64,000 bases of DNA from positions 249,632-313,631 of the forward strand of contig JACKQF010000005.1 of NCBI GenBank assembly GCA_024232965.1. Direction: 5' to 3'. The position numbers were made by a program, and so were the translations under genes. Source of the DNA: Verrucomicrobiaceae bacterium (GTDB taxonomy: Bacteria > Verrucomicrobiota > Verrucomicrobiia > Verrucomicrobiales > Verrucomicrobiaceae). The notes beneath the pieces were generated by a model that searched no databases, was not told the origin of the DNA, and worked only from the letters and a program-made list of their open reading frames with translations. Within the stretch, counting starts at the first letter, position 1. Each line of letters opens with the position of its first letter. Positions 30,233 through 46,436 of this stretch are shown here, in pieces.

Positions 30233-30937
30233 ATGAATGAAGTCCTTCATGAGGCCCTAGCCATGCACAACCTCCCGGTCACGGTGCTTCTGGGGATCAT
30301 CCTCCTCTATTGGCTCATGGTGCTAGTAGGCGCGCTGGATAGTGATATGGACACCGTCGATATCCACGCAGATACCGATGTCCATCTCGACGCAGATGCA
30401 CACGTCGACGGCCATGCTGACGTTCATTCGGACAACGTGCTGGGTGGGCTTTTCATGCGTGCTGGACGGTTCCTCCGCCTCGGTCAGGTACCCCTCATGC
30501 TCGTCATGAGTATCCTCGCTATCTTCATGTGGCCCATCTCCATGCTGGGAAACTACTACCTGAATGGCACCGCTGACCACCGCAGCACCGGTTTTGCCTT
30601 GCTAATGCTTTTGCCAAATTTCATCGTTAGCGCCCTCGCTACCCGCATGGTCACCGCACCGATCGCTGCGGCTCTGAAAAAACTGTCCATCGAGACAGAC
30701 GCCAATTTGCCCATCGTCGGCAGGCACGGCCGCGTCCAGTCGTTCCAGGTAGATCAGACCTATGGGCAAATCGAAATCCCCACGGATGGAGCCCCCCTTC
30801 TTGTCAATGCACGCACCCTCGATGGTGCAGCCCCTTTGCCCAAAGGCACCCGCGTCATCGTCCTGGAGGCCACTGAAGGCCACCATTACCTCATCCGGGC
30901 ATTGCGCCCCGAGGAGCAAACCACTCTCACTCTTTAA
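30233..30937 (+). CDS. NfeD/YqiJ-like membrane protein with a C-terminal OB-fold and a His/Asp-rich low-complexity segment
   Basis: TM helices (VTVLLGIILLYWLMVLVGA, LMLVMSILAIFMWPI, FALLMLLPNFIVSALA). C-terminal beta-barrel pattern GRHGRVQSF...GQIEIPTDGAPLLVNART...GTRVIVLEATEGHHYLIRAL. Sits immediately upstream of a flotillin gene. Confidence 0.55.
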   Translation: MNEVLHEALAMHNLPVTVLLGIILLYWLMVLVGALDSDMDTVDIHADTDVHLDADAHVDGHADVHSDNVLGGLFMRAGRFLRLGQVPLMLVMSILAIFMWPISMLGNYYLNGTADHRSTGFALLMLLPNFIVSALATRMVTAPIAAALKKLSIETDANLPIVGRHGRVQSFQVDQTYGQIEIPTDGAPLLVNARTLDGAAPLPKGTRVIVLEATEGHHYLIRALRPEEQTTLTL

Positions 30938-30955: not shown

Positions 30956-33046
30956 ATGAATGAGTTATCTACCGTCACCGACTCCTTTTTGTCGAACACC
31001 GTTATGGTCACCGGCACCAGCGTTGTGGTCGTCGTCTTCGGCACCATCATCGCCTTTTCTCGCTTCTATCGAAAGGTCCAGCAGGGCCAGGCGATCGTCC
31101 GCAATGGCGTCGGCGATACGCGCGTCAATTTCAACGGCCTCATGGTCTTCCCAGTCATCCATCAGGCGGAGTACATGGACCTCTCCGTCAAACGCATCGA
31201 GGTAGAGCGCCAAGGCTCCGAAGGCCTGATCTGCAAAGACAACATCCGCGCAGACATCAAGGTCGCTTTCTTCGTTCGCGTCAATAAGAGCGAAGAAGAC
31301 GTCAAGCGCGTCGCACAAACCATCGGCTGCCAGCGCGCCTCCAGCGTTGACACCATCCGCACCCTCTTTGACGCCAAATTCTCTGAGGCACTCAAGACCG
31401 TCGGCAAGCGCTTTGACTTCGTTCAACTCTACAATGAGCGCGATCATTTCAAAGACGAGATCCTCAAAGTCATCGGCACAGATTTGAATGGCTTCACCCT
31501 CGACGACTGCGCCATCGACTTCCTTGAACAGACCGCCATCGAGCACCTCGATCCCGACAACATCCTCGATGCAGAAGGCATCAAAAAGATCACCGAACTC
31601 ACTGCGACGCAGGCAAAACTCGCCAACCAAATTCAGCGCGATAAAGAAAAGGTCATCAAGCAGCAAGACGTCCAGACTCGCGAGGCCGTCCTCGAACTCG
31701 AACGCCAACTCGCTGAAACCGAAGCCAAACAGCACCGCGATGTCCAGTCCGTCAAAGCACGCGAGATGGCGGAAATGATGAAGGTGCAAGAAGAAGAGCG
31801 TCTCAAAGCAGAGCGCGCCAAGATCGCAGCCGACGAAGAGATCGCCATCGCCACCGAAAACAAAGACCGCCAAATCCTCGTCGCTCAGCGCAACAAGGAA
31901 CGAACCGACGCTGTTGAAATCGAGCGCGTCACCCGTGATCGCGACCTCGAAATCATCGATCGCGAACGCATCACCACGCTCAAGTCCATCGAGAAAGAGA
32001 AGTCCGTGGAAGTGGAGCGCAAGAACATCCAGGAAGTCATCAAGGAGCGCGTCGCCCTTGAAAAGACCGTCGTTGTCGAACAACAAAAGATCAAAGACAC
32101 CGAAGCCTTCGCCACCGCAGATCGCGAAAAACAAGTCGCCCTGACCAACGCAGAGAAAGCGGCGCAGGAGCAACTCATCCAAAAAATCAAAGAAGCGGAA
32201 GCCGCCAAGGAAGCCGCACAACTCGCCGCAGAACAGGCCGCATTTACTCACATCCGGGCCGCAGAAGCCTCAAAACAGGCCGCAGAAATGCAAGCTCAAG
32301 AATTGCTCACGCTCGCGGAAGCCCGCCAAGAGGCCTCCACCAAAGACGCCACCGCGACGAAGGCCTTGGCCGAAGCCGAAGCCGCACGCTCCGCCGCCAT
32401 CGGGCTTGGCGAGGCCCAAGTCCTCATGGCCAAAGCCGAGGCTTCGCAGAAGCAAGGCCAGATCGATGCAGAAGTCGCGCAGCTCAAACTCGCGGCGGAA
32501 GCCGACGGCATTACCAAGAAGGCAGAGGCGATGAAACTCCTCGAAAACGCCGGACGCGAGCACGAAGAATTCAAGCTCCAACTCGACAAGCAGAAGGCTG
32601 TCGAACTCGCCCAGATCAGCATTCAGAAAGATATTGCCGCCGCTCAGGCCGGGGTGCTAGGCGAAGCGATGAAGTCCGCCAAGATCGAAATCGTTGGGGG
32701 CGAGAGCCAGTTCTTTGACAAGATCACCAACGCCATCGGCAACGGTCGCGCCCTTGACCGCATGGTCGAAGGCAGCCGCACACTCACCGATGTGAAGGAG
32801 ACCTTTTTCAATGGAGACCCCGACTACTTCAAAGCCCAAGTGCGCCAGCTCGTCGATCAGTTCGGCGTCACCAGCGATGATCTCAAGAACGTCACGGTCG
32901 CCGCGCTCCTGGGCAAACTTGTCGGACTGAATCCTGACTCCGGCACACTGAGCAAGCTCACCAGCATGATCGGTGCTGCCAGTCGCTTCGGCTTTGCCGA
33001 TCAATCCGCTGGCAACCTCCTGGCCGCAAAGAGCGCAAAGAAGTAA
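30956..33046 (+). CDS. Flotillin / SPFH (band 7) family protein, YqiK-like, with a long Ala/Glu/Lys-rich coiled-coil
   Basis: N-terminal TM (VMVTGTSVVVVVFGTIIAFS). SPFH core (QAIVRNGVGDTRVNFNGLMVFPVIHQAEYMDLSVKRIEVER...ICKDNIRADIKVAFFVRV). About 250 aa of EA/KA-rich heptads. 696 aa. Confidence 0.8.
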   Translation: MNELSTVTDSFLSNTVMVTGTSVVVVVFGTIIAFSRFYRKVQQGQAIVRNGVGDTRVNFNGLMVFPVIHQAEYMDLSVKRIEVERQGSEGLICKDNIRADIKVAFFVRVNKSEEDVKRVAQTIGCQRASSVDTIRTLFDAKFSEALKTVGKRFDFVQLYNERDHFKDEILKVIGTDLNGFTLDDCAIDFLEQTAIEHLDPDNILDAEGIKKITELTATQAKLANQIQRDKEKVIKQQDVQTREAVLELERQLAETEAKQHRDVQSVKAREMAEMMKVQEEERLKAERAKIAADEEIAIATENKDRQILVAQRNKERTDAVEIERVTRDRDLEIIDRERITTLKSIEKEKSVEVERKNIQEVIKERVALEKTVVVEQQKIKDTEAFATADREKQVALTNAEKAAQEQLIQKIKEAEAAKEAAQLAAEQAAFTHIRAAEASKQAAEMQAQELLTLAEARQEASTKDATATKALAEAEAARSAAIGLGEAQVLMAKAEASQKQGQIDAEVAQLKLAAEADGITKKAEAMKLLENAGREHEEFKLQLDKQKAVELAQISIQKDIAAAQAGVLGEAMKSAKIEIVGGESQFFDKITNAIGNGRALDRMVEGSRTLTDVKETFFNGDPDYFKAQVRQLVDQFGVTSDDLKNVTVAALLGKLVGLNPDSGTLSKLTSMIGAASRFGFADQSAGNLLAAKSAKK

Positions 33047-33079: not shown

Positions 33080-36000
33080 ATGCCCGATTCTCCCACTACC
33101 ACCGCTGACCCAAAGCTCGAAGCAGGAGCCTACGAGGTCATCCGCACTCGTCTGACCAAGCATGCAGACGAACTGCGGCGACGTGTCGATCTGCTGAACA
33201 ATGACCGCAAGGCCTTGTTCGGCGGCATCGAAACCACTCTTGCATCGACCGTCCGGCTCACCACGGAAAACAACTGTGTTCCCCGCGATCTAGCCGCCAT
33301 CGGCCCGCAGCGGTTTGTTTTGGGCTACAACGTCCACCTCGGACTGCGCTCGCAGATGCAGGTCGCGGATGTGTTCGCCATCTACGATTACCACCCGGAA
33401 GATCACACATTTCATCCCAACAAAGACGGCCTTCTCAACGACCCAAAGTTCTCGGAAGACTTTGATTACCTCTACCGCTACTACAAAAACGCATCCTTCC
33501 TGAAGTTCCACCGCAATGGTCCCCACCTCTACATGGGCATGCAGGTCGGGCGTGATATCAGCGAGGTCAAGGTCTTCAAGTGGCTCGTCGATGACGACAA
33601 AGGAACGATCCAATATCTCGGCAATCGCTTTGATCACGAATTCGTCTTCCCCTCACCGCAGGAGTTCGAATGGAAGCGGGCGCGGCGCGAGATGTATCGC
33701 CATGGCGAGCATCCACACGTCTCCATCGAAGACCGCGTTTTCGTCGAAACCGTCGGAGGCGATCTGACCGTCAAGGTTGAAAACAACACCGCCAACGGCA
33801 AGGGCATCTATTCAGAGCCCGTCGAAAACAAAGACCAGACGCTCGACGACGCAGAGTTTCACTACGCCATCATCGGCAATCTGATCCTCCTCAAGATCCT
33901 GCCGTACCAAGAGAAGGAATACCGGCACCTCGTCTTCAACGAGCGCACCCAAGAGGTGCATCGCATCGATAGCATCGCTGAATCCTGCGTGCTGCTGCCA
34001 GATGATCACGGCATCATCTTCCCCAAGGGTTACGCGCTCCAGACCGGGGAAATCAAGAGCTTTGATACCGGCCTTCCAGTGATGCAATTCGAGCGGAAAA
34101 TTGCCTCTTCAAATGGCGAAGACACACTCTTCGTCTTTCATCATGTCGAAAGCGGCACCTACCTGCTCTATGCTTACAACCTGATTGAACAGGGCGTGGG
34201 CACACCGCTCATCAGCAACGGTTACAGCCTCTTTCCCACCGGTGAGCTTGTCCTTATTCAGGGCGACCCAGAGCCACGAAAGCATCACGTCATCCAAGTC
34301 TGGACCACTCCGTTTTTGAGTGATGGCGTCGCTGCTGCTCGGACCAGCGCCAATGGCTCACTGCTTTCAAAGATCGGCAATTCCGACATCGTCCGCTGCA
34401 TGGCAGAATGCCGCGGCGTGTTGACCCTACTGGCAAAAGAAGACAGCTTCAGTGGTCTCTACATCGAGCTATCACGACGCTCTGGCGATATCATTGATAG
34501 CTATTTCTGGATCGACAAACCAGAGACGCACCGCATCAAGGAGACGCTGGTCGAAATCAAAGGTGCCGCCGAAGCCGCGTTGGGCGAATTTGAAAAGGTC
34601 CGCCGTATGCGCAAAAACGCGCGCGACCAGACAGACACGCTCCGCACCAAGGTCAGTAAGAGCCTCAACGAAGCCTCCGGCACCGACTCCAGCGACATTA
34701 TCAGTTTTGTCAAACACCTGACCACACTGCGCGAACTGCGAGGCCAGGTGATCGCGCTACGGGACGTGCGCTACACCGTGCCGGAGGAGTTGACAGAGAT
34801 GGAGGAATCCATCACCGCGGGCACAGATCGCCTCAGCCAGCAGTGCGTCACCTTCCTCCTACGCCCCGAAGCACTTGATCCCTATCGCCAGCAGATTGCA
34901 GAACAAAAGGCCCTCATCGCCAATGTCAAAAAAGTCGCCGAAGCAGAAGAGGTCGAACAGGCCCTTGCGCAGTCCGGCACAGAATTGGAAATGCTCATCA
35001 GCGTCGTCGGCGGTCTGAAAATCAAAGACGCCACCGAGACCACCCGCATCATTGAGAGCATCTCAGAGCTGTATGCACAGCTCAACCAAGTGCGATCCGT
35101 GTTACGCAATCGCCGCAGCGACCTGGCAAAGGCAGAAGGCAGCGCTGAATTTCAGGCACAACTCAGCTTACTCAATCAAAGCGTCGCGAACTACCTGGAG
35201 GTCTGCACCACTCCAGAGAAATGTGATGAGGCACTCACGCGAGTGATGGTGCAGCTAGAAGAAATCGAAGGCCGCTTCAGCGACTTCGAAGACTTCACCG
35301 CTGACCTCACCACCAAGCGTGAAGAGATCTATACCGCATTTCAGTCCCGTCGGCAGGCCCTTGTCGAGAACCGCAACAAACGCTGCCAGGCACTCGGCCA
35401 ATCCGCAGAACGCATCCTCACCAGTTTGCGCAATCGCGTCGTCACCTTTGCCAAGCCCGAGGAAGTCCACGCCCACCTCGCCTCCGACGTCATGGCGGTA
35501 AAGTTGCGCGACCTCATCGAAGAACTGCGGAAGCTGGGCGATAGCGTCCGCGCCGACGAACTCGGCACACGCTTCAAGACCCTGCGTGAAGACGCCCTCA
35601 AGCAGATCCGCGATAAAGCAGATCTCTTCTCTGAAGGTGGTGATCTCATCCAATTCGGCAGACACAAATTCACCGTCAACCGCCAACCGCTGGAGCTGAC
35701 CACTTTGCCGCGCGACGGAGAATTGTTCTTCCACCTCACCGGCACCCGCTTCTTTGAAAAGGTCCAACATCCCGATCTCGACTCTTGCCGATCCGTTTGG
35801 GAACAGGCCGTCATCTCAGAAGATGCCACCGTCTATCGCGGCGAATTCCTTGCGTGGAAGTTCATGCAAACTCAGTTGCACAGTGATGCCGAGCCTACAC
35901 TCGAAGCCATCCGCGACTTCATGCACCAGCGCTATCAGGAAGGCTATACCAAAGGTGTGCACGATCACGATGCCTTCCTCATCGTCAGTGAACTGATCAA

Positions 36001-38062
36001 AATGCACCGCGCGCTCGGCCTCCTGCGTCACTCCCCCAAGGCACGCGGCCAAGCTCTGCTCCATTGGCACGCATGGCCCGATGGGCCAGAGAAAAGCGCC
36101 TTTGATGCAATGATGCTCGCCCGTGGACGCATGGGCGCATCAGGTGCCTCACCAGCTCTATCGACCTCCACCAATATGCCGGAAGCAGCCACCACGGCTG
36201 CGCTGCTGGACGAACTCATGGCACGCGATTCAAAAGCGCCGCGCCTGCCCGTCACCCGCTCCGCACAGGCTGTCGAACTCGTCCGCAACTTCCGCAAGAC
36301 ACTGACCGCCAAGCGCATGTCAGCGGACTTTGACGCAGCGATGGAATCACTGAAGAACGAGCCAAAGCACCGCTTTCAGATTATCCTCGAGTGGCTGCAA
36401 GCCACCAGCAGTGAATGCGAAGAAGGCACCACCATTGAGGCCGCAGCACTGCTACTCATCAACGATCAACCACCCGCGACTCTTCCGCTATCTCCACCGT
36501 CCAAGGCCCAAATTAAGGGCCTCACCGGATCACACTCCCGAATTGATCAAGGCAACCTCACGCTCGACTACCACGAATTTACCGAGCGCCTCGCTCATTA
36601 CGAAGCTAACGTCGTGCCCATGTTTGAACGCTTCACCGCTCTGAAGCACGAACTCACCACCGCCAAGCGTGCGGCCCTCCGTCTTGATGAATTCAAAGCC
36701 GGCGTACTCAGTTCGTTCGTTCGCAATCGATTGCTCGACCAAGTCTATCTTCCACTCATCGGCGCGAACCTCGCCAAACAACTTGGCGCCGCCGGTGACA
36801 ATACCCGCACAGATCGCATGGGCCTACTCATGCTGATCTCCCCACCGGGCTACGGAAAAACGACCTTGATGGAATACGTCGCCAACCGTCTCGGCATCAC
36901 CTTTGTCAAAGTCAACGGACCCGCCATCGGCCATCGCGTTACCTCGCTCGATCCCGCAGAAGCACCGAATGCCAGCGCCCGCGAGGAGGTGGAAAAGATC
37001 AACCTCGCCTTTGAAATGGGTGATAACGTCATCATCTACCTCGATGACATCCAGCACACCAACCCAGAGTTTTTGCAAAAGTTCATCTCCCTCTGCGATG
37101 GCAGCCGCAAGATCGAAGGCGTCTATAGAGGCAAAGCCCGCACCTATGACCTGCGTGGACGCAAAGTCGGCGTCGTCATGGCCGGGAACCCCTACACCGA
37201 AATCGGCGGGAAGTTTCAAGTCCCAGACATGCTGGCCAACCGAGCAGATACCTACAACCTTGGAGATATTCTTGGCGGGCACGAGGCAGCCTTCAAAGAC
37301 AGCTACATCGAAAACGCCCTCACCAGCAATGCCGTGCTGGCCAAGATCGCCGCACGCAGCCACAAAGACGCGCTGACCATCCTCCAAATCGCGCAGACAG
37401 GCAGTCGCGAAGGCATTGAATTTGAGAGCAACTGCGGTGCCGATGAAGTCAACGAAGCCGTCGCCGTCATGGAAAAACTCCTGCACATCCGCGAGATCAT
37501 CCTGCGCGTGAACCAGGAGTACATCCGCAGCGCCGCGATGGAGGATGCCTACCGCACAGAGCCGCCGTTTAAGCTTCAGGGCAGCTATCGCAACATGAAC
37601 CGCATCGCAGAAAAAGTGCTGCCGCTCATGACCGACGCAGAGGTCCAGGCCATCATCGAAGACCACTACCGCGGCGAATCCCAAACGCTCAGCCAAGCCG
37701 CCGAAGCCAACCTCCTGAAGTGGCGCGAGATCAACGCCCTCATCACCGAGGCCGAGGCCAAACGCTGGGATGAAATCAAACGAACCTTCGGACGCAACCT
37801 CCTCACCGGCGGTGCCGGAGACAACGACCCCGTGTCCCGCATCACCGGACAGCTCAGCGCCTTCAACGTGGGCCTAGAAAAGATTGGCGATGCCGTCTCC
37901 CACCCCACCCTCTCCGCCACCACTATCAACCAGCTCACAAAAATCATTAGCGATCTCCGCGCCGTGCCCGTGAATGTAGAAATCAAAGTTCTGCCTGTGG
38001 AGCAAAAGAACGAATCCGACCTCCCCGTGCAGGTGGACGGCGAGGTGCGGCAAGGGGGATAA
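33080..38062 (+). CDS. Giant (1660 aa) protein of unknown function with a C-terminal MoxR/AAA_5-like AAA+ ATPase domain
   Basis: Single uninterrupted ORF. Walker A LISPPGYGKTT (nt ~36.85 kb). Walker B VIIYLDDIQHTNPEFLQKFISLCDG. Sensor-1 VGVVMAGNPYTE (MoxR-like ...ATQNPIE). N-terminal ~1200 aa have no recognisable domain (beta-rich ~450 aa, then helical/coiled-coil). Confidence 0.7.
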   Translation: MPDSPTTTADPKLEAGAYEVIRTRLTKHADELRRRVDLLNNDRKALFGGIETTLASTVRLTTENNCVPRDLAAIGPQRFVLGYNVHLGLRSQMQVADVFAIYDYHPEDHTFHPNKDGLLNDPKFSEDFDYLYRYYKNASFLKFHRNGPHLYMGMQVGRDISEVKVFKWLVDDDKGTIQYLGNRFDHEFVFPSPQEFEWKRARREMYRHGEHPHVSIEDRVFVETVGGDLTVKVENNTANGKGIYSEPVENKDQTLDDAEFHYAIIGNLILLKILPYQEKEYRHLVFNERTQEVHRIDSIAESCVLLPDDHGIIFPKGYALQTGEIKSFDTGLPVMQFERKIASSNGEDTLFVFHHVESGTYLLYAYNLIEQGVGTPLISNGYSLFPTGELVLIQGDPEPRKHHVIQVWTTPFLSDGVAAARTSANGSLLSKIGNSDIVRCMAECRGVLTLLAKEDSFSGLYIELSRRSGDIIDSYFWIDKPETHRIKETLVEIKGAAEAALGEFEKVRRMRKNARDQTDTLRTKVSKSLNEASGTDSSDIISFVKHLTTLRELRGQVIALRDVRYTVPEELTEMEESITAGTDRLSQQCVTFLLRPEALDPYRQQIAEQKALIANVKKVAEAEEVEQALAQSGTELEMLISVVGGLKIKDATETTRIIESISELYAQLNQVRSVLRNRRSDLAKAEGSAEFQAQLSLLNQSVANYLEVCTTPEKCDEALTRVMVQLEEIEGRFSDFEDFTADLTTKREEIYTAFQSRRQALVENRNKRCQALGQSAERILTSLRNRVVTFAKPEEVHAHLASDVMAVKLRDLIEELRKLGDSVRADELGTRFKTLREDALKQIRDKADLFSEGGDLIQFGRHKFTVNRQPLELTTLPRDGELFFHLTGTRFFEKVQHPDLDSCRSVWEQAVISEDATVYRGEFLAWKFMQTQLHSDAEPTLEAIRDFMHQRYQEGYTKGVHDHDAFLIVSELIKMHRALGLLRHSPKARGQALLHWHAWPDGPEKSAFDAMMLARGRMGASGASPALSTSTNMPEAATTAALLDELMARDSKAPRLPVTRSAQAVELVRNFRKTLTAKRMSADFDAAMESLKNEPKHRFQIILEWLQATSSECEEGTTIEAAALLLINDQPPATLPLSPPSKAQIKGLTGSHSRIDQGNLTLDYHEFTERLAHYEANVVPMFERFTALKHELTTAKRAALRLDEFKAGVLSSFVRNRLLDQVYLPLIGANLAKQLGAAGDNTRTDRMGLLMLISPPGYGKTTLMEYVANRLGITFVKVNGPAIGHRVTSLDPAEAPNASAREEVEKINLAFEMGDNVIIYLDDIQHTNPEFLQKFISLCDGSRKIEGVYRGKARTYDLRGRKVGVVMAGNPYTEIGGKFQVPDMLANRADTYNLGDILGGHEAAFKDSYIENALTSNAVLAKIAARSHKDALTILQIAQTGSREGIEFESNCGADEVNEAVAVMEKLLHIREIILRVNQEYIRSAAMEDAYRTEPPFKLQGSYRNMNRIAEKVLPLMTDAEVQAIIEDHYRGESQTLSQAAEANLLKWREINALITEAEAKRWDEIKRTFGRNLLTGGAGDNDPVSRITGQLSAFNVGLEKIGDAVSHPTLSATTINQLTKIISDLRAVPVNVEIKVLPVEQKNESDLPVQVDGEVRQGG

Positions 38063-38253: not shown

Positions 38254-39057
38254 CTACAACTGTCCCAAGGTCCACCGCACCGCGTTCGAGATCAACCGCC
38301 GCACAGATGCCTGCGCCACGTCCTCAGGTGCGCCCAGGCTTGTGTAAAAAACCCGCGCCTTCCCAGGGCCATAGAGTCGCGTCCAAGCGATGGGCTGAGC
38401 CGGCTCGATCCCTTGGGCGGTCCCCAGTAACAGCGGAGAGGCATCGGCAGCCAAGGGCAGCACTCGGTAGAGCGATTGATACCCACGGATGGTCCCCGGC
38501 TCCACCCCCTCAAGCAGCGGACTGGCTTTTGCAGCAGCAGGATGGACTTCCACCCGATAGGGCAGCCCCTTGGTTTCGTAGCCCGTGTTCTGGCAGCCCA
38601 AAACTTCAGGAGTAAACTCGGGCCAAGCAACACAACCCTCAGGCAGCGGTGGATCCTTTGGACTCACCGCGAACCCATGATTGGCAGTGCGAATTCCCAA
38701 CAAAGGCTTCCCCGCCGCAAGGTGCTCCCGGATAGCCTCCAGATCCGCCAGCGGTGGCGTGGCACGACGCACAAACACAATCAACAAATCCGCAGTCTTG
38801 AGCGCAGGTGCCAGCCCCTCAAGTCGAGTCGGCTTTGGCTGATTCCCCTGTACAATCGTGACATGATGCCCAGCGGGCCGCAGTTCTTTTTCAGCGAAGG
38901 CCGAGAGAAAATTGACCGCATCGTAGTTGTTTGGATCTTCCACCGTAACGCAAACGATTTCCGCCGACCTCAGATTCACGCAAAGCAAACCGAACAAAAC
39001 CAGTTGGACCCAATGCCTTGTGCGATGTCCGAATGGGATAGGAAAACTGAGGATCAT
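38254..39057 (-). CDS. Secreted ThuA-like / class-I glutamine-amidotransferase-like domain protein (tentative)
   Basis: Start set at MILSF... 18 nt inside the upstream gene's end. Hydrophobic N-terminus. IVCVTVEDPNNYDAVNF...TADLLIVFVRR...GKPLLGIRTANHGF pattern, reminiscent of ThuA/GATase1-like folds. Confidence 0.3.
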   Translation of the reverse strand: MILSFPIPFGHRTRHWVQLVLFGLLCVNLRSAEIVCVTVEDPNNYDAVNFLSAFAEKELRPAGHHVTIVQGNQPKPTRLEGLAPALKTADLLIVFVRRATPPLADLEAIREHLAAGKPLLGIRTANHGFAVSPKDPPLPEGCVAWPEFTPEVLGCQNTGYETKGLPYRVEVHPAAAKASPLLEGVEPGTIRGYQSLYRVLPLAADASPLLLGTAQGIEPAQPIAWTRLYGPGKARVFYTSLGAPEDVAQASVRRLISNAVRWTLGQL

Positions 39058-39071
39058 GATGATGACGAAGG

Positions 39072-41234
39072 CTAACGCACCGTGATGAAATCGTTGTGAT
39101 TTAGGAGAGTGTGAACAATTGCGGTCCTGGCGGTGGTGGGATCTCCGAGAGTTGGGAGAGCTTCCAGGCATGCATTCATTTCTTCTTCGCTTGGTGGCGT
39201 GGCGAGGATGAGTTGAAATGCAGCCTGAATAAAGGGGCGGTTCTCGGTAGGCAGCGCCTTCGCGATGGATTCGGCAGCAGACAAAGCGATGCCTCCATTC
39301 ATCAGCGCCAGCGCCTGTTGCGGAACGATGCTTTCGGCACGGCGGTAACATTCGAGGATGTTGGCGTTGTCAAAGGTATTGAGGAATGCAGCGGCGTTGT
39401 CGCGTGAATGAGTGAGATACAGGCTGCGACGTTGAACTTTGGCCTCTTCGTTATCGCCGAGAGGTGGACCACCCAAAGTTGAATCTAATCGTCCAGACAA
39501 TTGCAGGAGGCTATCACGCATGGTTTGCGCATCCAATCGGATGGCGTTCATGCGCCAATACATTTTGTTTTCAGGATCACGTTCTGCATCGATGCTGGGC
39601 GCGTTCGCGGTGCTGCTGGTCATACCGTAAGTATCGGAAAGCACCATGAGGCGATGCAGGTGCTTCAGGCTCCATCCGCTGTCCATAAACTCGACCGCTA
39701 GCCAATCCAGCAGCGCCTGATGTTGCGGGGCTGGGCTGCGGCGTCCAAAGTCCATGACATCCGCAACGAGAGGCTGCCCGAAATGGCGGAGCCACAAGTG
39801 ATTCACCAGGACGCGAGCCGTCAGCGGATTTTGCCGATCTGTGATCCATACTGCCAATGCTGTGCGACGACCTGTGCTAGTTTGCGGAAACGGCAAGTAG
39901 AGCGTAGCATCCTCCTCATCGGGGCCTTCACGCGCCTTCAACGATCCGACGATGCGGTAAGGTTGGCCTTGCCCCTTTTTCTGATTCGCGATGGCGGTGT
40001 GCATCGCCGTCTCTGCTGCGGATTTTTTATCTGGTTTGGCCTCCGCTACCGCGAGCTTTGCCTTCGCGACCTCGTAGGCGAGATTGGAAGCAACATCTTG
40101 CCGTCGGATAGCTCGCACTTTGCACTGTGCCGCCTTGATCTTTAGGACGGCAACTTCAGCGCCAACGCCCTTGTGCAAAGCAGCCTTCGCGGTTTGGAGT
40201 TCTCTGATGGCGGCGGCGATCTGATCTCCCTTCACAAATTTCTGCGTCTCGGGCTTCGCTGCGTGGATGGGCAAGGACACGGGTGTGATCTGAAGCGGCT
40301 TAAAGGCCAGCGCCGCAGGGATAGCAGGCGCAATGGCGGCCGAGGTGTCTTGGTTATTGTCGTCACCTTTAATGTGCAAGTAGGTGGCCTGTTGCAAATG
40401 TAAATCGTAGGCCCGAGGAAGTCCGTCCTTTTCAAGATCAGGCTGCCCAGGCAGCACATCCAAACGCACATGATAGGGTTCGAAGATGGCACGCATAGCG
40501 TAGTAGTCCTCGTGCGTGAAGGGATCGTACTTATGCGCGTGGCACTTTACGCAGTTCATGGTGAGGCCGAGAAAGGCCTTGCTAGTGTGTTCGATGACGT
40601 CGTCTAGCCAAGTTGTGCGATTGAAGAGGTAATAGTTGCGAGCCAAGAACCCTGTCGCACGGAGAACGTCAGGATCATCAGGAGCGATCTCATCACCGGC
40701 GAGCATCTCTGTGATCATGCGGTCGTAACCCTTGTCCGCATTCAGCGATTGAATAATCCAGTCGCGCCAATGCCAGAGATGCTTCTGACTATTGCGCAAC
40801 TGACTGCCAAGACCGTACCAATCGGCATACCGCCAGATATCCATGAAGTGACGGCCCCAACGCTCGCCGTATTGGGGTGAAGCAAGAAGGCGATCGACAA
40901 CCCGACGACGAGCCCCCTGAAGGTCTGTGCCAGCGTCTTTTTTAAAAACCTGCATCTGCTCAGCGCTGGGTGGGAGTCCGATGAGATCAAGGTAAACACG
41001 CCGCAACCAGAGGCTTGGTGAAGCAGCAGGCTGGGGGATGAGGCCAGCGGCTGTTCGTTTTGGTTGAATCAATTCATCGATGGACCGCGACCCGCCCTCG
41101 GCCACCTCCGGCGCAACGAAGGCCCAATGCGGAGGGCCAGATGCGGGCAATGGAGGACGATCTGTACCCGACAACTTTCCCGCTGTCACAGACATTAGCG
41201 ACAGGGCTAGAAATCGAGCGAAATGGGCAGTCAT
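39072..41234 (-). CDS. DUF1549/DUF1553 domain protein (PSD1 family without cytochrome-c modules)
   Basis: Signal-like MTAHFARFLALSLMSVTAG. The start at 41234 avoids overlap with the divergent M20 gene. DUF1549 (YLDLIGLPPSAEQMQVF). DUF1553 (NCVKCHAHKYDPFTHEDYYAMRAIF). Confidence 0.75.
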   Translation of the reverse strand: MTAHFARFLALSLMSVTAGKLSGTDRPPLPASGPPHWAFVAPEVAEGGSRSIDELIQPKRTAAGLIPQPAASPSLWLRRVYLDLIGLPPSAEQMQVFKKDAGTDLQGARRRVVDRLLASPQYGERWGRHFMDIWRYADWYGLGSQLRNSQKHLWHWRDWIIQSLNADKGYDRMITEMLAGDEIAPDDPDVLRATGFLARNYYLFNRTTWLDDVIEHTSKAFLGLTMNCVKCHAHKYDPFTHEDYYAMRAIFEPYHVRLDVLPGQPDLEKDGLPRAYDLHLQQATYLHIKGDDNNQDTSAAIAPAIPAALAFKPLQITPVSLPIHAAKPETQKFVKGDQIAAAIRELQTAKAALHKGVGAEVAVLKIKAAQCKVRAIRRQDVASNLAYEVAKAKLAVAEAKPDKKSAAETAMHTAIANQKKGQGQPYRIVGSLKAREGPDEEDATLYLPFPQTSTGRRTALAVWITDRQNPLTARVLVNHLWLRHFGQPLVADVMDFGRRSPAPQHQALLDWLAVEFMDSGWSLKHLHRLMVLSDTYGMTSSTANAPSIDAERDPENKMYWRMNAIRLDAQTMRDSLLQLSGRLDSTLGGPPLGDNEEAKVQRRSLYLTHSRDNAAAFLNTFDNANILECYRRAESIVPQQALALMNGGIALSAAESIAKALPTENRPFIQAAFQLILATPPSEEEMNACLEALPTLGDPTTARTAIVHTLLNHNDFITVR

Positions 41235-41301
41235 GCGGGGCAGCAATACGTTGCGAACGGGGCATCCTTTGCAGTGGACGATTTCATCAGACTGTGGCTG
41301 A

Positions 41302-42480
41302 GTGTTGGCGATGAACTTCCGAATGCCCGAAAGCGTGATCGAACTGGCCCAGGCACTGGTGCGCATTCCATCGGTCAACCCGGACGGCGATCCTGGCACG
41401 GACTGCATCGGCGAAGAAGCCTGCGCGCGCTATGTGGCTGACTTTTTGGAAGCCGCAGGAGCTGAGGCCTTTCTGGACGAGGTCGTGCCAGGCCGCCCAA
41501 ACGTCATCGGGCGATTCAGCAGCACGCCTTCAACGGATGGGCAGAAGAAGCCACGCATCGTCTTCGGTCCCCACACAGACACCGTCAGCGTGGGCGGAAT
41601 GACCATTGATCCCTTTGGCGGAGAGATCCGCGATGGCCGTCTGTGGGGCCGCGGCGCGTCCGACACCAAGGGCACAATGGCGTCGATGCTGTGGGCACTC
41701 TGGGTAATGCGGAAGGAGATACCGGATCTCGCCGTCGAGGTACACTTCGCCGGGTTCATGTCAGAAGAGTCAGCTCAACTGGGCTCCCAACACTTCGCCA
41801 AGCACCACGGTCCGTACGATCTGGCATTGGTGGGCGAGCCAACGGAATTGCAAATCGTCCACAAGCACAAGGGCTGCGTCTGGGCGGACGTGATCACCAC
41901 AGGAGTGGCCTGCCACGGCGCTACGCCCGAGCGAGGAGTGAATGCAATCGTCAAAATGGCCTGTCTGATTGATGCGCTCGACACAACTTTTCGCGAGGAA
42001 CTGGCCGCCGCAGATTCCGATGAGGTGCTCGGCCACAGCACCATCAACCTCGGCATGATTAACGGCGGCACCCGATCAAACATCGTCGCTGACCACTGCA
42101 TGCTACGAGTGGACATGCGAGTCACCCCAGGGCTTCTGGCGAAGGGTGGCGGGCTGAAACTCTTGGAGAACTTTGTGACCAAAATTGACCCCACTGCGTC
42201 CGTGAAATTGAGCAGCCAATCACACGCGCTCGACACCGCCCCAAACCAACCCGGCATCCGCAAGCTCCAAGGCTGCGGCGCAGGATTGGTCGGCGCCCCA
42301 TGGTTCTGCGATGCGGCATTTCTCGCGGCCGGGGGAACACCAGCCATCGCCATCGGCCCGGGCTCTATCGCTCAGGCACACACGAAGGATGAGTTCATCA
42401 CCCTCGCTGATCTGGAAGCTGGCGCTGCATTTTTCACAGACTTTTTGAAATCACTGACAACCTGGGATGTGAGCGTATGA
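41302..42480 (+). CDS. M20-family metallopeptidase (ArgE/DapE-like deacylase)
   Basis: LVRIPSVNPDGD...GPHTDTVSVG...GRGASDTKG...HFAGFMSEE. Metal ligands are typical of M20. Confidence 0.8.
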   Translation: MLAMNFRMPESVIELAQALVRIPSVNPDGDPGTDCIGEEACARYVADFLEAAGAEAFLDEVVPGRPNVIGRFSSTPSTDGQKKPRIVFGPHTDTVSVGGMTIDPFGGEIRDGRLWGRGASDTKGTMASMLWALWVMRKEIPDLAVEVHFAGFMSEESAQLGSQHFAKHHGPYDLALVGEPTELQIVHKHKGCVWADVITTGVACHGATPERGVNAIVKMACLIDALDTTFREELAAADSDEVLGHSTINLGMINGGTRSNIVADHCMLRVDMRVTPGLLAKGGGLKLLENFVTKIDPTASVKLSSQSHALDTAPNQPGIRKLQGCGAGLVGAPWFCDAAFLAAGGTPAIAIGPGSIAQAHTKDEFITLADLEAGAAFFTDFLKSLTTWDVSV

Positions 42481-43241: not shown

Positions 43242-44045
43242 TCACGCACAACAGGTTGGCCCAGGCGGGACGGCAGTCTGATCGCGGCGGTTGAACGCGA
43301 TGCAGTCACTGTATTTGACGCCCGTACCACCAAACATGTCAAGCGCACTGCCGATGGTGGCATCCACCCGACCATCACTGGCATCCTGAATCCTCCACAG
43401 GTCATCAATGCTACTTACACCACCGGCATAAGTCACAGGGATCGGAGAATACTCTCCCAGAAAGCGCACAAGCGGCTCGTCGATGCCTTCGCACTTTCCT
43501 TCCACATCGACCGCATGAATCAAAAACTCGGCGCACTGTGAAGCCAAAGTCGCCAGCGTCTCGGGCGATAACTCCAAATTCGTGATCGTTTGCCAGCGAT
43601 TCATGGCCACAACCCATCCGCCAGCAGTCGCTTTACAACTCAGATCGATAACCAGCCGTTCTTTGGGAATCACGGCCAGGAGTGCGTCCAACCGGGATTG
43701 CAGAAACTTGCCTTCCTTATCGAAAAGGTTACTGGTCACAATGACATGGCTGGCTCCGGCGTCCAGGTATTGGCGCGCATTCGCGGCTGAGATCCCACCA
43801 CCGACTTGAAGTCCGCCAGGAAATCCAGCCAAGGCCCAAAGTGCGGCCTTCTCGTTCCCAGGCCCAAGCATGATCACATGCCCACCGGGAGTATTGTCTT
43901 GCCAATACTGGCGAGCAAACCAAGAGGAATCCCTGTCGCTAACGAAGTTTGTCTTCAGGGCGCGACCGTCGTCAGTGAGACTGGAGCCGACGATCTGCTT
44001 CACCCGACCATCATGAAGATCGATACAGGGCCGAAAGCGTGTCAT
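43242..44045 (-). CDS. hisA: HisA-like ProFAR isomerase, eukaryotic HIS6-type
   Basis: FRPCIDLHDGRVKQIVGSSL (compare yeast HIS6 FRPCIDLHNGQVKQIVGG). (beta/alpha)8 pattern with a C-terminal GG...D phosphate-binding motif. ATGA overlap with map. Confidence 0.6.
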   Translation of the reverse strand: MTRFRPCIDLHDGRVKQIVGSSLTDDGRALKTNFVSDRDSSWFARQYWQDNTPGGHVIMLGPGNEKAALWALAGFPGGLQVGGGISAANARQYLDAGASHVIVTSNLFDKEGKFLQSRLDALLAVIPKERLVIDLSCKATAGGWVVAMNRWQTITNLELSPETLATLASQCAEFLIHAVDVEGKCEGIDEPLVRFLGEYSPIPVTYAGGVSSIDDLWRIQDASDGRVDATIGSALDMFGGTGVKYSDCIAFNRRDQTAVPPGPTCCA

Positions 44046-44875
44046 TCCACAGACAGTTCTGAGATCGGACGTGGCACCAAGTCTTTCGTGCCATGGGGGA
44101 ACATGCGACCGCGATTGGTTACGATGTCCGGCTCGCCATTAGTGATCAGCACCATGTGCTCATAGTGAGACGATGGCTTCCGATCGGTAGCGATCACCGT
44201 CCAGCCGTCTGCCAAAATGCGTGTTTTGTCCGAACCAAGGTTCACCATTGGCTCGATGGCCAGAGTCATCCCCGCCTTCAAACGCGGGCGATCACCACGC
44301 TTGCCGTAGTTGGGCACTTGCGGTTCTTCATGGAGTTTCCGGCCGACACCATGTCCCACGAACTCTTTGACCACAGTAAAGCCGAATTGGCTCACGTGAT
44401 TTTCGACACTCCAGCACAAGTCACCAAGCATGTGGCCGTCTCTTGCGTGATCAATCGCGACATGCAACGACTCCTCGGTCGCCGCGAGCAACCGCATTGT
44501 ATCCGGCTCAACATTTCCCACTGGAACGGTCAGGGCATTGTCGCCAATCCATCCGTCATACTGAATGCCAATGTCGATTTTAACGATATCCCCGTCTTGA
44601 ATCACTCGAGGGCCGCCAATACCATGCACCACCTCTTCGTTGATGGAGATGCAAATATTACCAGGGAACCCGCGATAGCCAAGAAATGCACTCTTGCATC
44701 CTCTGGCCCGCATTTCTGCGGCAGCTAGTCGATCAATCTGTGCTGTGGTGGCACCGATGTGAACCTCTGCCGCAGTTTTCAACAGAATGTCCCGGGCCAT
44801 CTGACCCGCCTTGCGAATGCACGCTTGCTGAGGCCCATGGCGAATGGGAATACGCCCTGCGGTTAAGAGGCCCAT
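44042..44875 (-). CDS. map: Methionine aminopeptidase type I
   Basis: Metal ligands D...D...H...E...E in canonical spacing (FLGYRGFPGNICISINEEVVHGIG...DIVKIDIG...VKEFVGHGVG...EPMV...). Confidence 0.9.
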   Translation of the reverse strand: MGLLTAGRIPIRHGPQQACIRKAGQMARDILLKTAAEVHIGATTAQIDRLAAAEMRARGCKSAFLGYRGFPGNICISINEEVVHGIGGPRVIQDGDIVKIDIGIQYDGWIGDNALTVPVGNVEPDTMRLLAATEESLHVAIDHARDGHMLGDLCWSVENHVSQFGFTVVKEFVGHGVGRKLHEEPQVPNYGKRGDRPRLKAGMTLAIEPMVNLGSDKTRILADGWTVIATDRKPSSHYEHMVLITNGEPDIVTNRGRMFPHGTKDLVPRPISELSVE

Positions 44876-44921
44876 GGAAAGATCAAAATGGAAGAGGGCT
44901 CTGCCGAAGCAGAGCCAAAGA

Positions 44922-46436
44922 CTATTTGTCGGCAGGTCCGTGCATCATTGCATAGCTGATGCCGATGATGGCCAAAGCAGCGATGATCACCCAAATCCAA
45001 ACGACTGTCGTCGCGCTAGCCACTTTGCCAGCACTCCCCTGCACACGGTCAAAGCGGCCCCGAAGGCGACCCTTGCGGAGGAAACCATCGTAATGGCTTT
45101 GCAGCAGGTGCGTTTCCACTTGGCGCATCACATCAAGAACGACGCCGACCAGAATCAAAAGGCTGGTGCCACCGAAGAACTGAGCGGTCTTTGGCGCAAT
45201 CTGCAACACACGGCTAACGATACCCGGAAGCACATAGATAATCGTCAAGAAAATCGCACCGGCGAAAGTCAGACGGCTCATCGTGAAATCGAGGAAATCG
45301 GCGGTCGGCTTCCCAGGGCGGATACCGGGAACATAGCCCCCACTCTTTTTGAGATCCTCAGCAATCTGAGTGGGTTGGAACATCGTTGCGACCCAGAAAT
45401 AGCTGAAAAAGAAAATCAATCCGGCAGAGATCGTGTAATACACCCAACCGGAGTTGATGGTCGCAGAAAAGCGCTGGACCCACTCCACGTGCGGCATCAT
45501 CGAACTCAGGATCTGCGCAGGGAAGAGCAGGATGGCCTGGGCGAAGATGATCGGCATAACGCCCGAATAGTTGATCTTGAGCGGCAGATATTGCGTCTGG
45601 CCTCCGTAAACTTTGCGTCCCACGACACGCTTGGCGTATTGAATTACGATCCTTCGCTGCGCTTCCGTCAGGGCAATCACCCCAGCAATTACGGCAATGA
45701 AAAGAGCCAAAAGCAGGACCAGCATGAAAGCTTTGCTAGGATCCGCCGTCGCACCACCGACGTAGCTTTGCCAAACCTGAACCAGGGCACCTGGCAAGGC
45801 AGAAACAATGTTGACACAAATAAGGAGAGAAACGCCGTTTCCGATCCCACGTTCAGTAATGATCTCACCCAACCACATCATGAGCATGGTGCCCGCCGTG
45901 ATCGTTACGACGGAGCTAAACACAAAGCCAAATCCGTATCCAGGCACCAGAGGTCGCCCCATCTGGTTAATGGTATCCTGAAGACCAGAAAGGAAGATGT
46001 TCTGTCCAGGATTATTCAGCGACTTCGCCAACAGATACCCCTGGAAGACGCAGAGCGCGATCGTCGCCAACCGGGTGTACTGATTGATCTTCTGGCGACC
46101 ACCATCTTCACGGGCGAGCTTGCTCAACGAAGGCACGACGGCCGTCAGTAGTTGCAGCATGATGCTGGCGCTGATGTAGGGCATGATCCCCAACGCAAAA
46201 ATTGCGCACTGCTCAAGCGCACCGCCACTGAAAACGTTCAGCAGGGCAGCAACGGCAGCGGCACCAGATTCGGAATTGGCAGTCCGGTTAGCAATCCAAG
46301 TGCGAAGCACCTCTGGATCGACACCTGGAAGAGTGATGGCAGACCCGATTCGGACGATAACAATCATCCCCAGGGTGAAGAGAATTCTCGACCGAAGTTC
46401 GGGAACTTTTAGGCTATTTGCAAAGGCGGAAATCAT
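44922..46436 (-). CDS. secY: Preprotein translocase subunit SecY
   Basis: 504 aa, 10 TM. Conserved N-terminus LRSRILFTLGMIVIVRIGSAITLPGVD. Confidence 0.9.
   Translation of the reverse strand: MISAFANSLKVPELRSRILFTLGMIVIVRIGSAITLPGVDPEVLRTWIANRTANSESGAAAVAALLNVFSGGALEQCAIFALGIMPYISASIMLQLLTAVVPSLSKLAREDGGRQKINQYTRLATIALCVFQGYLLAKSLNNPGQNIFLSGLQDTINQMGRPLVPGYGFGFVFSSVVTITAGTMLMMWLGEIITERGIGNGVSLLICVNIVSALPGALVQVWQSYVGGATADPSKAFMLVLLLALFIAVIAGVIALTEAQRRIVIQYAKRVVGRKVYGGQTQYLPLKINYSGVMPIIFAQAILLFPAQILSSMMPHVEWVQRFSATINSGWVYYTISAGLIFFFSYFWVATMFQPTQIAEDLKKSGGYVPGIRPGKPTADFLDFTMSRLTFAGAIFLTIIYVLPGIVSRVLQIAPKTAQFFGGTSLLILVGVVLDVMRQVETHLLQSHYDGFLRKGRLRGRFDRVQGSAGKVASATTVVWIWVIIAALAIIGISYAMMHGPADK

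Follow-up and report, generated by a model that had tools for sequence, protein, structure and literature searches.

Here we present the analysis of a giant ATPase gene in 64,000 nucleotides of DNA from a Verrucomicrobiaceae bacterium (GCA_024232965.1, contig JACKQF010000005.1, positions 249,632 to 313,631), a stretch that is called the window below. The gene (gene 3; 33080..38062 on the + strand) encodes a protein of 1660 aa ending in a single AAA+ module, and it lies directly behind two genes, one for a YqiJ/NfeD-like membrane protein and one for a YqiK-type flotillin, with which it apparently forms an operon. On the whole, the partner of the giant ATPase is this flotillin/YqiJ gene pair, not a VWA protein, and we think it probable that the ATPase is an ATP-driven remodeller acting together with the flotillin module. 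Computational studies had already described both the family and its operon, and the window carries one more ordinary member. A first-pass annotation, made from the letters of the window only, had outlined a cytoplasmic protein with a beta-rich N-domain, a helical middle part and a C-terminal AAA+ module, next to SPFH/NfeD genes. This outline turns out to be largely right, and its implied novelty does not hold, as the architecture and the operon were published in 2024 (PMC11237479).

The giant ATPase and its flotillin gene pair

The open reading frame (ORF) of the ATPase begins with ATG and is translated with zero internal stops across 1660 codons up to its stop codon. Its product is aligned end to end, with 99-100% coverage, to full-length homologs of 1640-1730 aa, and the closest of them (P0001) is 93% identical across 100% of the length. 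The full-length alignment therefore excludes an artefact of frameshift or gene fusion, and the single uninterrupted ORF of the first-pass annotation stands. Pfam finds DUF3686 (PF12458), DUF7902 (PF25472), AAA (PF00004) and AAA_5 (PF07728) in the protein, which thus has the arrangement that defines the family, namely PF12458 at the N-terminus, then PF25472 and then a C-terminal AAA module, with a family length of 1600-1900 aa. The family has more than 4,800 homologs of like architecture and length. A DUF3686 search of 1.84 billion cluster representatives gives 699 clusters at E up to 1e-3, and among the 150 matches listed the domain lies at or near the N-terminus in nearly all full-length ones (about 1600-1930 aa). 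One full-length homolog of 1711 aa (P0222, eukprot g33011.t1) comes from a eukaryotic proteome set and is 56% identical to a Desulfobacterales protein; contamination or horizontal transfer could be its origin.

The three genes of the cassette are co-oriented, with gaps of 18 nt between gene 1 and the flotillin gene and 33 nt between the flotillin stop and the ATPase gene. Gene 1 (30233..30937, +) encodes the YqiJ/NfeD-like protein of 234 aa, which has three hydrophobic segments, i.e. three peaks above 1.6 in the 19-residue Kyte-Doolittle mean, at about residues 13-35, 85-107 and 118-148. It shows a weak but specific similarity to E. coli YqiJ (pairwise E 9e-5) and 31% identity to a 'DUF1449 family protein' of Hymenobacter (E 4e-22). 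Gene 2 (30956..33046, +) encodes the flotillin (SPFH) of 696 aa, which is 31% identical to E. coli YqiK over 471 aa (E 3e-50). It has one hydrophobic peak at about residues 15-38, hence one N-terminal transmembrane helix, and the remainder is predicted to be cytoplasmic. The two proteins are identified through their pairwise similarity to E. coli YqiK and YqiJ, because domain models and the PDB phmmer search gave nothing: neither protein has a Pfam or NCBIfam match even at E 10, and neither has a match in PADLOC or by phmmer in PDB. The precomputed Pfam fields are also empty for the flotillin counterparts in three other phyla, and standard domain annotation seems to miss the whole YqiK-type flotillin subtype. 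The YqiJ-like protein carries, between its first two hydrophobic segments, the His/Asp-rich DMDTVDIHADTDVHLDADAHVDGHADVHSDN (residues 38-68; 30344-30436, +), where E. coli YqiJ has the shorter DAHLDHYDS at the aligned position; this loop could be a metal-binding one.

The giant ATPase itself has no transmembrane segment, its highest 19-residue Kyte-Doolittle mean being 1.1 against the usual threshold of 1.6, and it is predicted to be a soluble, cytoplasmic protein, as had been proposed. Since the ATPase lacks a transmembrane segment and the flotillin is mostly cytoplasmic, both would share a compartment. No VWA gene or domain is found in the ORFs scanned within about 8 kb on either side, in agreement with the first-pass annotation.

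The association is analysed in 80 related loci from species-representative genomes, plus loci inspected in further lineages. In all sampled loci whose upstream sequence is long enough, L046 excepted, the flotillin gene lies directly upstream of the ATPase gene, and a YqiJ-like gene usually precedes the flotillin gene (in nearly all related loci). L045, of the same order as L046, offers only about 500 nt upstream and is left out of this judgement. The gene order is present in nine sampled phyla, namely Verrucomicrobiota, Planctomycetota, Fibrobacterota, Desulfobacterota, Sumerlaeota, Bacteroidota, Actinomycetota, Deinococcota and Pseudomonadota. It is seen, for example, in Desulfonema, Symmachiella and a metagenome-assembled genome (MAG) of Sumerlaeota, and also on pQBR103 of Pseudomonas fluorescens and in Streptomyces, Nonomuraea, Deinococcus, Hymenobacter, Proteus mirabilis and Vibrio campbellii. 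The counterparts are 37-50% (ATPase) and 32-56% (flotillin) identical to the window proteins, and the gene upstream of the ATPase counterpart is annotated as 'flotillin family protein' or 'SPFH domain-containing protein', the flotillin of the window being 39-56% identical to genes with such annotation in other phyla. Across phyla the two proteins are conserved to a comparable degree, with 51-56% identity for the flotillin and 47-49% for the ATPase. The adjacency of orthologs to SPFH/NfeD genes, a point raised by the first-pass annotation, is therefore strongly conserved, with L046 as the clear exception. This locus (CAZHPS010000146.1, 1-8000) is the sole relative with ample upstream sequence yet no flotillin or YqiJ genes; its upstream genes include those for a Type ISP restriction-enzyme C-terminal domain, an HD phosphohydrolase, DUF3786/FeS, V4R and an M23 peptidase, and its ATPase has 1842 aa with a C-terminal extension.

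In two plasmid loci the module is accompanied by PspA genes. On a Hymenobacter plasmid, genes for 'molecular chaperone Tir' and 'PspA/IM30' lie directly before the module (L088, 3604-4720), and on pQBR103 the module comes directly after a complete yjfI-yjfJ(pspA)-rhomboid-DUF2491-DUF350-DUF1190-glutathionylspermidine-synthase-like operon (L085, 16-5140). The latter, a yjfI-pspA(yjfJ)-type operon, is a membrane-stress context.

The operon has a published precedent. Ravi et al. 2024 (mSystems, PMC11237479) described an operon of YqiJ/YuaF, a Band-7/flotillin and a 'Betapropeller+Coiled-coil+AAA-ATPase', with or without a CesT/Tir-PspA dyad, and listed a YqiJ/YuaF protein with three transmembrane segments among its elements; the paper names neither the Pfam family nor the AAA+ clade. 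The gene order and the domain architectures of the window cassette match this operon, and the cassette is a case of it, an identification resting on the matching architecture and neighbourhood. The Hymenobacter locus corresponds to the full Tir-PspA-DUF1449-flotillin-ATPase form. According to the same authors, abbreviated operons lacking PspA are more widely distributed. By tblastn with two PspA and two CesT/YjfI queries, no homolog is found in the 64-kb window; neither PspA nor CesT/Tir being adjacent or elsewhere in it, the window therefore carries the abbreviated form. Our literature search for DUF3686/PF12458, or for YqiK together with AAA, gave nothing specific.

The AAA+ module and its place among AAA+ ATPases

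The AAA+ module (residues ~1248-1530; 36821..37669, + strand, as are all features of the protein given below) has an alpha/beta core and a helical lid, with a predicted structure resembling MoxR, and it is the most conserved part of the giant ATPase (83-85% column identity). The catalytic residues are intact, and when 31 sequences of several phyla are aligned, K1260, D1322, D1323, N1370, R1388 and R1504 are invariant in all of them (31/31). The Walker A motif PPGYGKTT (residues 1255-1262, with K1260; 36842..36865) is invariant in these sequences and fits the GxxGxGK[ST] pattern. The Walker B motif IIYLDD (residues 1318-1323, with D1322-D1323; 37031..37048) is a variant of hhhhDE, in which the usual DE is replaced by an invariant DD. 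The segment of residues 1363-1392 (37166..37255) includes strand beta4, N1370 and R1388, and the lid contains GSYRN (residues 1501-1505, with R1504; 37580..37594) within the invariant block YRTEPPFKLQGSYRNMN. Judged from their positions in the predicted structure, N1370, R1388 and R1504 are candidates for sensor 1, the arginine finger and sensor 2, respectively. The three segments quoted in the first-pass annotation are located exactly, i.e. LISPPGYGKTT at residues 1252-1262, VIIYLDDIQHTNPEFLQKFISLCDG at 1317-1341, exactly 65 residues on, and VGVVMAGNPYTEIGGKFQVPDMLANRADTY at 1363-1392.

Both Pfam models score above their gathering cut-offs, with 34-36 bits against 21.2 for PF00004 and 24-27 bits against 22 for PF07728, and no ABC/SMC or dynamin model of Pfam or NCBIfam matches. 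Going by these motifs and domain matches, the module is a single AAA+ one near the C-terminus, and not of the ABC/SMC or dynamin class, as had been claimed.

In the model of residues 1190-1660, with a mean predicted local distance difference test score (pLDDT) of 74.8 and 80-94 in the core, the elements follow in the order beta1, P-loop, alpha1, beta2, alpha2, beta3 (Walker B), alpha3, a beta-hairpin and beta4 (sensor 1). The predicted hairpin before sensor 1, KIEGVYRGKARTYD (residues 1344-1357; 37109..37150), lies between alpha3 and beta4, and DSSP places its strands at 1344-1349 and 1352-1357 (155-160 and 163-168 of the C-terminal slice model). Between beta2 and alpha2 there is a highly conserved segment of 18 residues (1280-1297), modelled as a loop with a short helix.

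The first-pass annotation had placed the module in the MoxR/AAA_5 class, and the results speak on both sides of this. In favour of the class are the AAA_5 match and the likeness of the predicted structure to CbbQ and NorQ (PDB 6l1q, 9qh4), which are the nearest solved structures in Foldseek, followed by dynein and midasin. The target-normalised Foldseek TM-scores are 0.50-0.55 for CbbQ/NorQ versus about 0.35 for RuvB. On the other side, the alignment by hhalign of the family profile to five single E. coli AAA+ proteins gives RuvB 96%, ClpX 92%, FtsH 92%, Lon 88% (130 columns) and only 18% for RavA, the E. coli MoxR protein, which weighs against the assignment. In addition, the Pfam AAA_3 model, i.e. 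MoxR proper, finds no match in the giant ATPase even at E up to 10, and no beta-hairpin is modelled at the place of the helix-2 hairpin that defines the MoxR/AAA_5 (pre-sensor-2-insert) clade; the Foldseek E-values, given below, also count on this side. The pre-sensor-1 hairpin is present in the model, and this feature is common also to the HCLR clade (RuvB, Lon, ClpX). In our reading of the predicted structure, the module would belong to the AAA+ branch with a pre-sensor-1 hairpin and be structurally most like MoxR/AAA_5, outside the MoxR family proper. Matches by phmmer and profile in PDB are confined to the P-loop and its vicinity, about 40-90 residues, in p97/VAT, Rix7 and RuvB, and searches of PDB with the whole family alignment likewise match at the P-loop region only; therefore no part of the giant ATPase has a solved relative detectable by sequence.

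The differences from known systems are considerable. CbbQ and NorQ have only 14-17% sequence identity to the module. MoxR proteins are stand-alone proteins of about 270-500 aa with a VWA/MIDAS partner (CbbO, NorD, ViaA), whereas here the module ends a chain of 1660 aa and has no VWA partner, a DD Walker B and no modelled helix-2 hairpin. Dynein and midasin have six concatenated AAA modules per chain and AAA rings coupled to long helical elements, whereas the giant ATPase has one module and gives no evidence of homology to them beyond it.

The remaining regions of the protein and the surroundings of the cassette

The N-terminal DUF3686 domain (residues 31-476; 33170..34507) is matched by PF12458 with E 1.5e-177, and a long N-terminal helix precedes it at residues 15-47. 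Its model, covering the first ~480 residues (pLDDT 83.7, predicted template modelling score 0.83), is mostly beta with about 29 strands, and on this model the domain is a divergent beta-propeller. The beta-rich character foreseen in the first-pass annotation is thus borne out; the term 'unknown' given to the domain needs correction, as it belongs to a named Pfam family, which is still uncharacterised.

The long middle part had been taken as helical and coiled-coil-like from 480 to 1200, and this applies to only the first half or so of that range. Residues ~480-850 (34517..35629) make up a helical, coiled-coil-like stalk by helix-former content and heptad periodicity, with a helix-former fraction of 0.42-0.70 and proline plus glycine (P+G) of at most 0.07. 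The hydrophobic periodicity of 3.5 residues reaches z 4-5.4 at about residues 519-770, the significant signal being confined to about 480-850. The stalk includes DUF7902 (PF25472; residues 597-680; 34868-35119; Pfam E 2.4e-28), and it weakly matches the coiled coil of LmuB (PADLOC, E 6.5e-5). The next region, residues ~855-1000 (35642..36079), is conserved with 45-58% column identity and many nearly invariant residues, with the consensus GxHxFSVNxQxLDLT...HLTGTxFFE. It is richer in beta-formers and Gly, giving it a mixed or beta-rich look, and it has neither a heptad signal nor a Pfam or PDB sequence match. It is followed by a poorly conserved linker (residues ~1001-1160; 36080..36559), which has P+G up to 0.20 and is the least conserved stretch of the giant ATPase (20-34% column identity). 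The idea that residues 855-1200 hide a second, degenerate AAA module finds no support in any match to a hidden Markov model.

At the end of the protein there is a variable tail (residues ~1560-1660; 37757..38062) with pLDDT 31-38 and low conservation. In other lineages (Planctomycetota, Desulfobacterota) the tail is 50-130 residues longer, the insertions mapping to the C-terminus, so the Verrucomicrobial protein differs from other DUF3686/DUF7902 family members by its short tail and structurally not otherwise. Some of the longer Desulfobacterota homologs (P0125-P0134, P0141, P0156) have TPR or ankyrin Pfam matches, and an alignment of five of them puts the residues that they have in excess of the window protein at the C-terminus; such domains suggest lineage-specific additional binding partners.

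The wider flanks of the cassette consist of housekeeping genes at the same G+C content as the cassette, among them UbiE, HAD phosphatase, amine oxidase, ThuA-like, PSD1/PSCyt2, M20 peptidase, SDR, His-biosynthesis, methionine aminopeptidase and SecY genes. The gene upstream of the cassette is the amine oxidase gene, which is divergently oriented. Downstream, the ThuA-like ORF (38254-39351, -) and the PSD1/PSCyt2 ORF (DUF1553/DUF1549; 39072-41408, -) share about 280 nt in the ORF list; the match to ThuA is limited to residues 183-361, and therefore the ThuA-like gene probably starts further downstream than listed. The SecY and methionine aminopeptidase genes (44042-46436, -) resemble the end of a ribosomal-protein or spc-type operon, and they place the cassette in the core chromosome of a Verrucomicrobiaceae-like genome. 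The scan for promoter and terminator consensus gives nothing above shuffled expectation in the window; signals of this kind may not be in use in these organisms. The N-domain of the ATPase has no match among phage records, and an origin from a mobile element or phage is rejected on the basis of this missing match and the native G+C content and housekeeping genes of the flanks.

The proposed role of the giant ATPase and its alternatives

Given the cassette and its conserved order, the giant ATPase probably acts on or beside the flotillin module. By analogy with solved SPFH complexes, the flotillin, with its single N-terminal membrane anchor, would assemble together with the YqiJ-like protein into a large oligomeric scaffold of the inner membrane, on its cytoplasmic face. 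The C-terminal MoxR-like AAA+ modules would come together as oligomers, most likely hexameric rings, and turn over ATP, and the long helical stalk would carry the ATP-driven work to the N-terminal beta-propeller. The propeller may bind to the flotillin/YqiJ scaffold or to clients that this scaffold holds, with PspA polymers as a possible target in some organisms, and the scaffold or its clients would thereby be assembled, disassembled or remodelled during membrane (envelope) stress. The parts of this model that we infer are that the protein physically contacts the flotillin, that it forms a ring, in which direction it remodels and how it is linked to stress.

The mechanism would have precedents in HflK/C-FtsH, QmcA-YbbJ, Vps4 with ESCRT-III, CbbQ and NorQ. 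HflK/C-FtsH and QmcA-YbbJ are solved cages, in which SPFH scaffolds occur with an NfeD partner or an AAA+ machine (literature cited in PMC13086221). They resemble the cassette in having an SPFH protein that is encoded with an NfeD-type partner and functionally tied to an AAA+ machine at the cytoplasmic or membrane face. FtsH is a membrane-anchored protease of the classical AAA clade, whereas the giant ATPase is soluble and MoxR-like, lacks a protease domain, and has a propeller and a stalk. For the flotillin of the window, such a cage may be supposed from these examples.

In two narrower versions of the role we have less confidence. It is conceivable, though doubtful, that the protein is a dedicated ATP-driven machine of assembly and disassembly, in which a MoxR-like ring would pull flotillin oligomers or recruited PspA polymers by means of a dynein- or midasin-like stalk and a propeller 'hand'. 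That the flotillin itself should be the substrate is likewise rather tentative.

Several points weigh against the remodeller model. Gene adjacency is no proof of physical interaction, and L046, a Desulfobacterales MAG locus with 8 kb upstream, has no flotillin gene. E. coli YqiJK functions without such an ATPase, and therefore the flotillin does not need it in general. As no PspA homolog is found in the 64-kb window, the link to PspA is not local here. The structure models comprise the two terminal parts, the middle 700 residues lying outside them, and the MoxR-like assignment depends on an AlphaFold2 model of moderate confidence (mean pLDDT 74.8, as above). The Foldseek E-values, moreover, leave RuvB (6.7e-7) and CbbQ (1.1e-6) unseparated. 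The DD of the Walker B motif could mean slow hydrolysis, or an ATPase that is switch-like rather than motor-like. Finally, no experimental paper on any member of the DUF3686 family was found in the literature.

Among the alternatives, the one closest to the remodeller model, and overlapping with it, regards the flotillin/YqiJ cage as a platform and the ATPase as an unfoldase or extractase for damaged membrane proteins, resembling FtsH without its protease domain; we consider it unlikely. The AAA+ module is intact for such work, and the highly conserved loop between beta2 and alpha2 lies where pore loops sit. HflK/C-FtsH would serve as precedent here too, and the S. aureus FloA-NfeD is reported to stabilise unfolded proteins (PMC13086221). 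The cassette has no protease partner, however, the Walker B is DD and nothing points to a client. In general, MoxR-clade ATPases are not known as processive unfoldases, which also counts against this alternative.

Less likely still is a conventional maturase of the MoxR type, which would insert cofactors or activate enzymes with a VWA/MIDAS adaptor encoded elsewhere, the flotillin gene being beside it incidentally. Indeed, the best structural neighbours CbbQ and NorQ are MoxR maturases, and the Pfam AAA_5 match spans nearly the whole model. The missing AAA_3 match and the low hhalign probability for RavA do not fit this, however, and besides the roughly 8 kb scanned around the window cassette, the 14 loci inspected in other lineages also have no VWA gene within or next to the cassette. 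The adjacency to flotillin over nine phyla is very unlikely to be incidental, and the N-terminal apparatus of 1200 residues in the protein itself could replace the adaptor.

A defence system against phages or plasmids, in which the ATPase would sense infection and the flotillin/YqiJ pair would be the membrane effector, seems very improbable. Defence systems often include large NTPases of several domains, among them repeat domains that act as sensors. The module is carried by megaplasmids, such as pQBR103, linear plasmids of Streptomyces and plasmids of Deinococcus and Hymenobacter, and the ATPase gene of L046 is near a fragment of a Type ISP restriction enzyme, both of which would suit such a role. 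But PADLOC is empty for the flotillin and the YqiJ-like protein and gives the ATPase only the coiled-coil-level match to LmuB, no phage record matches, and the flanks in the window are housekeeping genes of the same G+C content. Moreover, the identity of about 47-56% between distant phyla speaks for a slow, conservative evolution, unlike that of typical defence genes.

Least credible of all is a true DNA repair ATPase of the SMC/SbcC/RecN kind, with a coiled coil between two ATPase halves and acting on DNA ends, which is suggested by the family labels (the Pfam PF12458 description 'ATPase involved in DNA repair' and the NCBI product name 'DNA repair ATPase'), by the weak match to the coiled coil of the SMC-like LmuB and by P-loop-level sequence matches to RuvB, whereas the nucleotide-binding motifs are all in one AAA+ module (1248-1530) with no split ABC head and no SMC or ABC match in Pfam or NCBIfam, the protein has no nuclease or DNA-binding domain and no SbcD/Mre11-like partner nearby, the RuvB matches are limited to the P-loop and its surroundings (about 44 residues), the genes conserved beside the ATPase gene encode membrane proteins, and no literature was found that ties the DUF3686 family to DNA repair. 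Most likely, 'DNA repair ATPase' is a misnomer that arose from the coiled coil, and this probably wrong name has been propagated to thousands of genomes.

As for the meaning of the remodeller model, much work has been devoted to bacterial flotillins as organisers of membrane microdomains, and the giant ATPase is an obvious candidate for an active, energy-coupling component. It is very large, has about 50% identity between phyla and lies beside one flotillin subtype in at least nine phyla, and these features are the basis of its candidacy. It is also a candidate link to the PspA system of membrane repair. If its narrower version, the dedicated machine of assembly and disassembly, is true, no energy-dependent regulator of a flotillin scaffold would have been known before the giant ATPase, which would be a bacterial counterpart of Vps4 acting on ESCRT-III.

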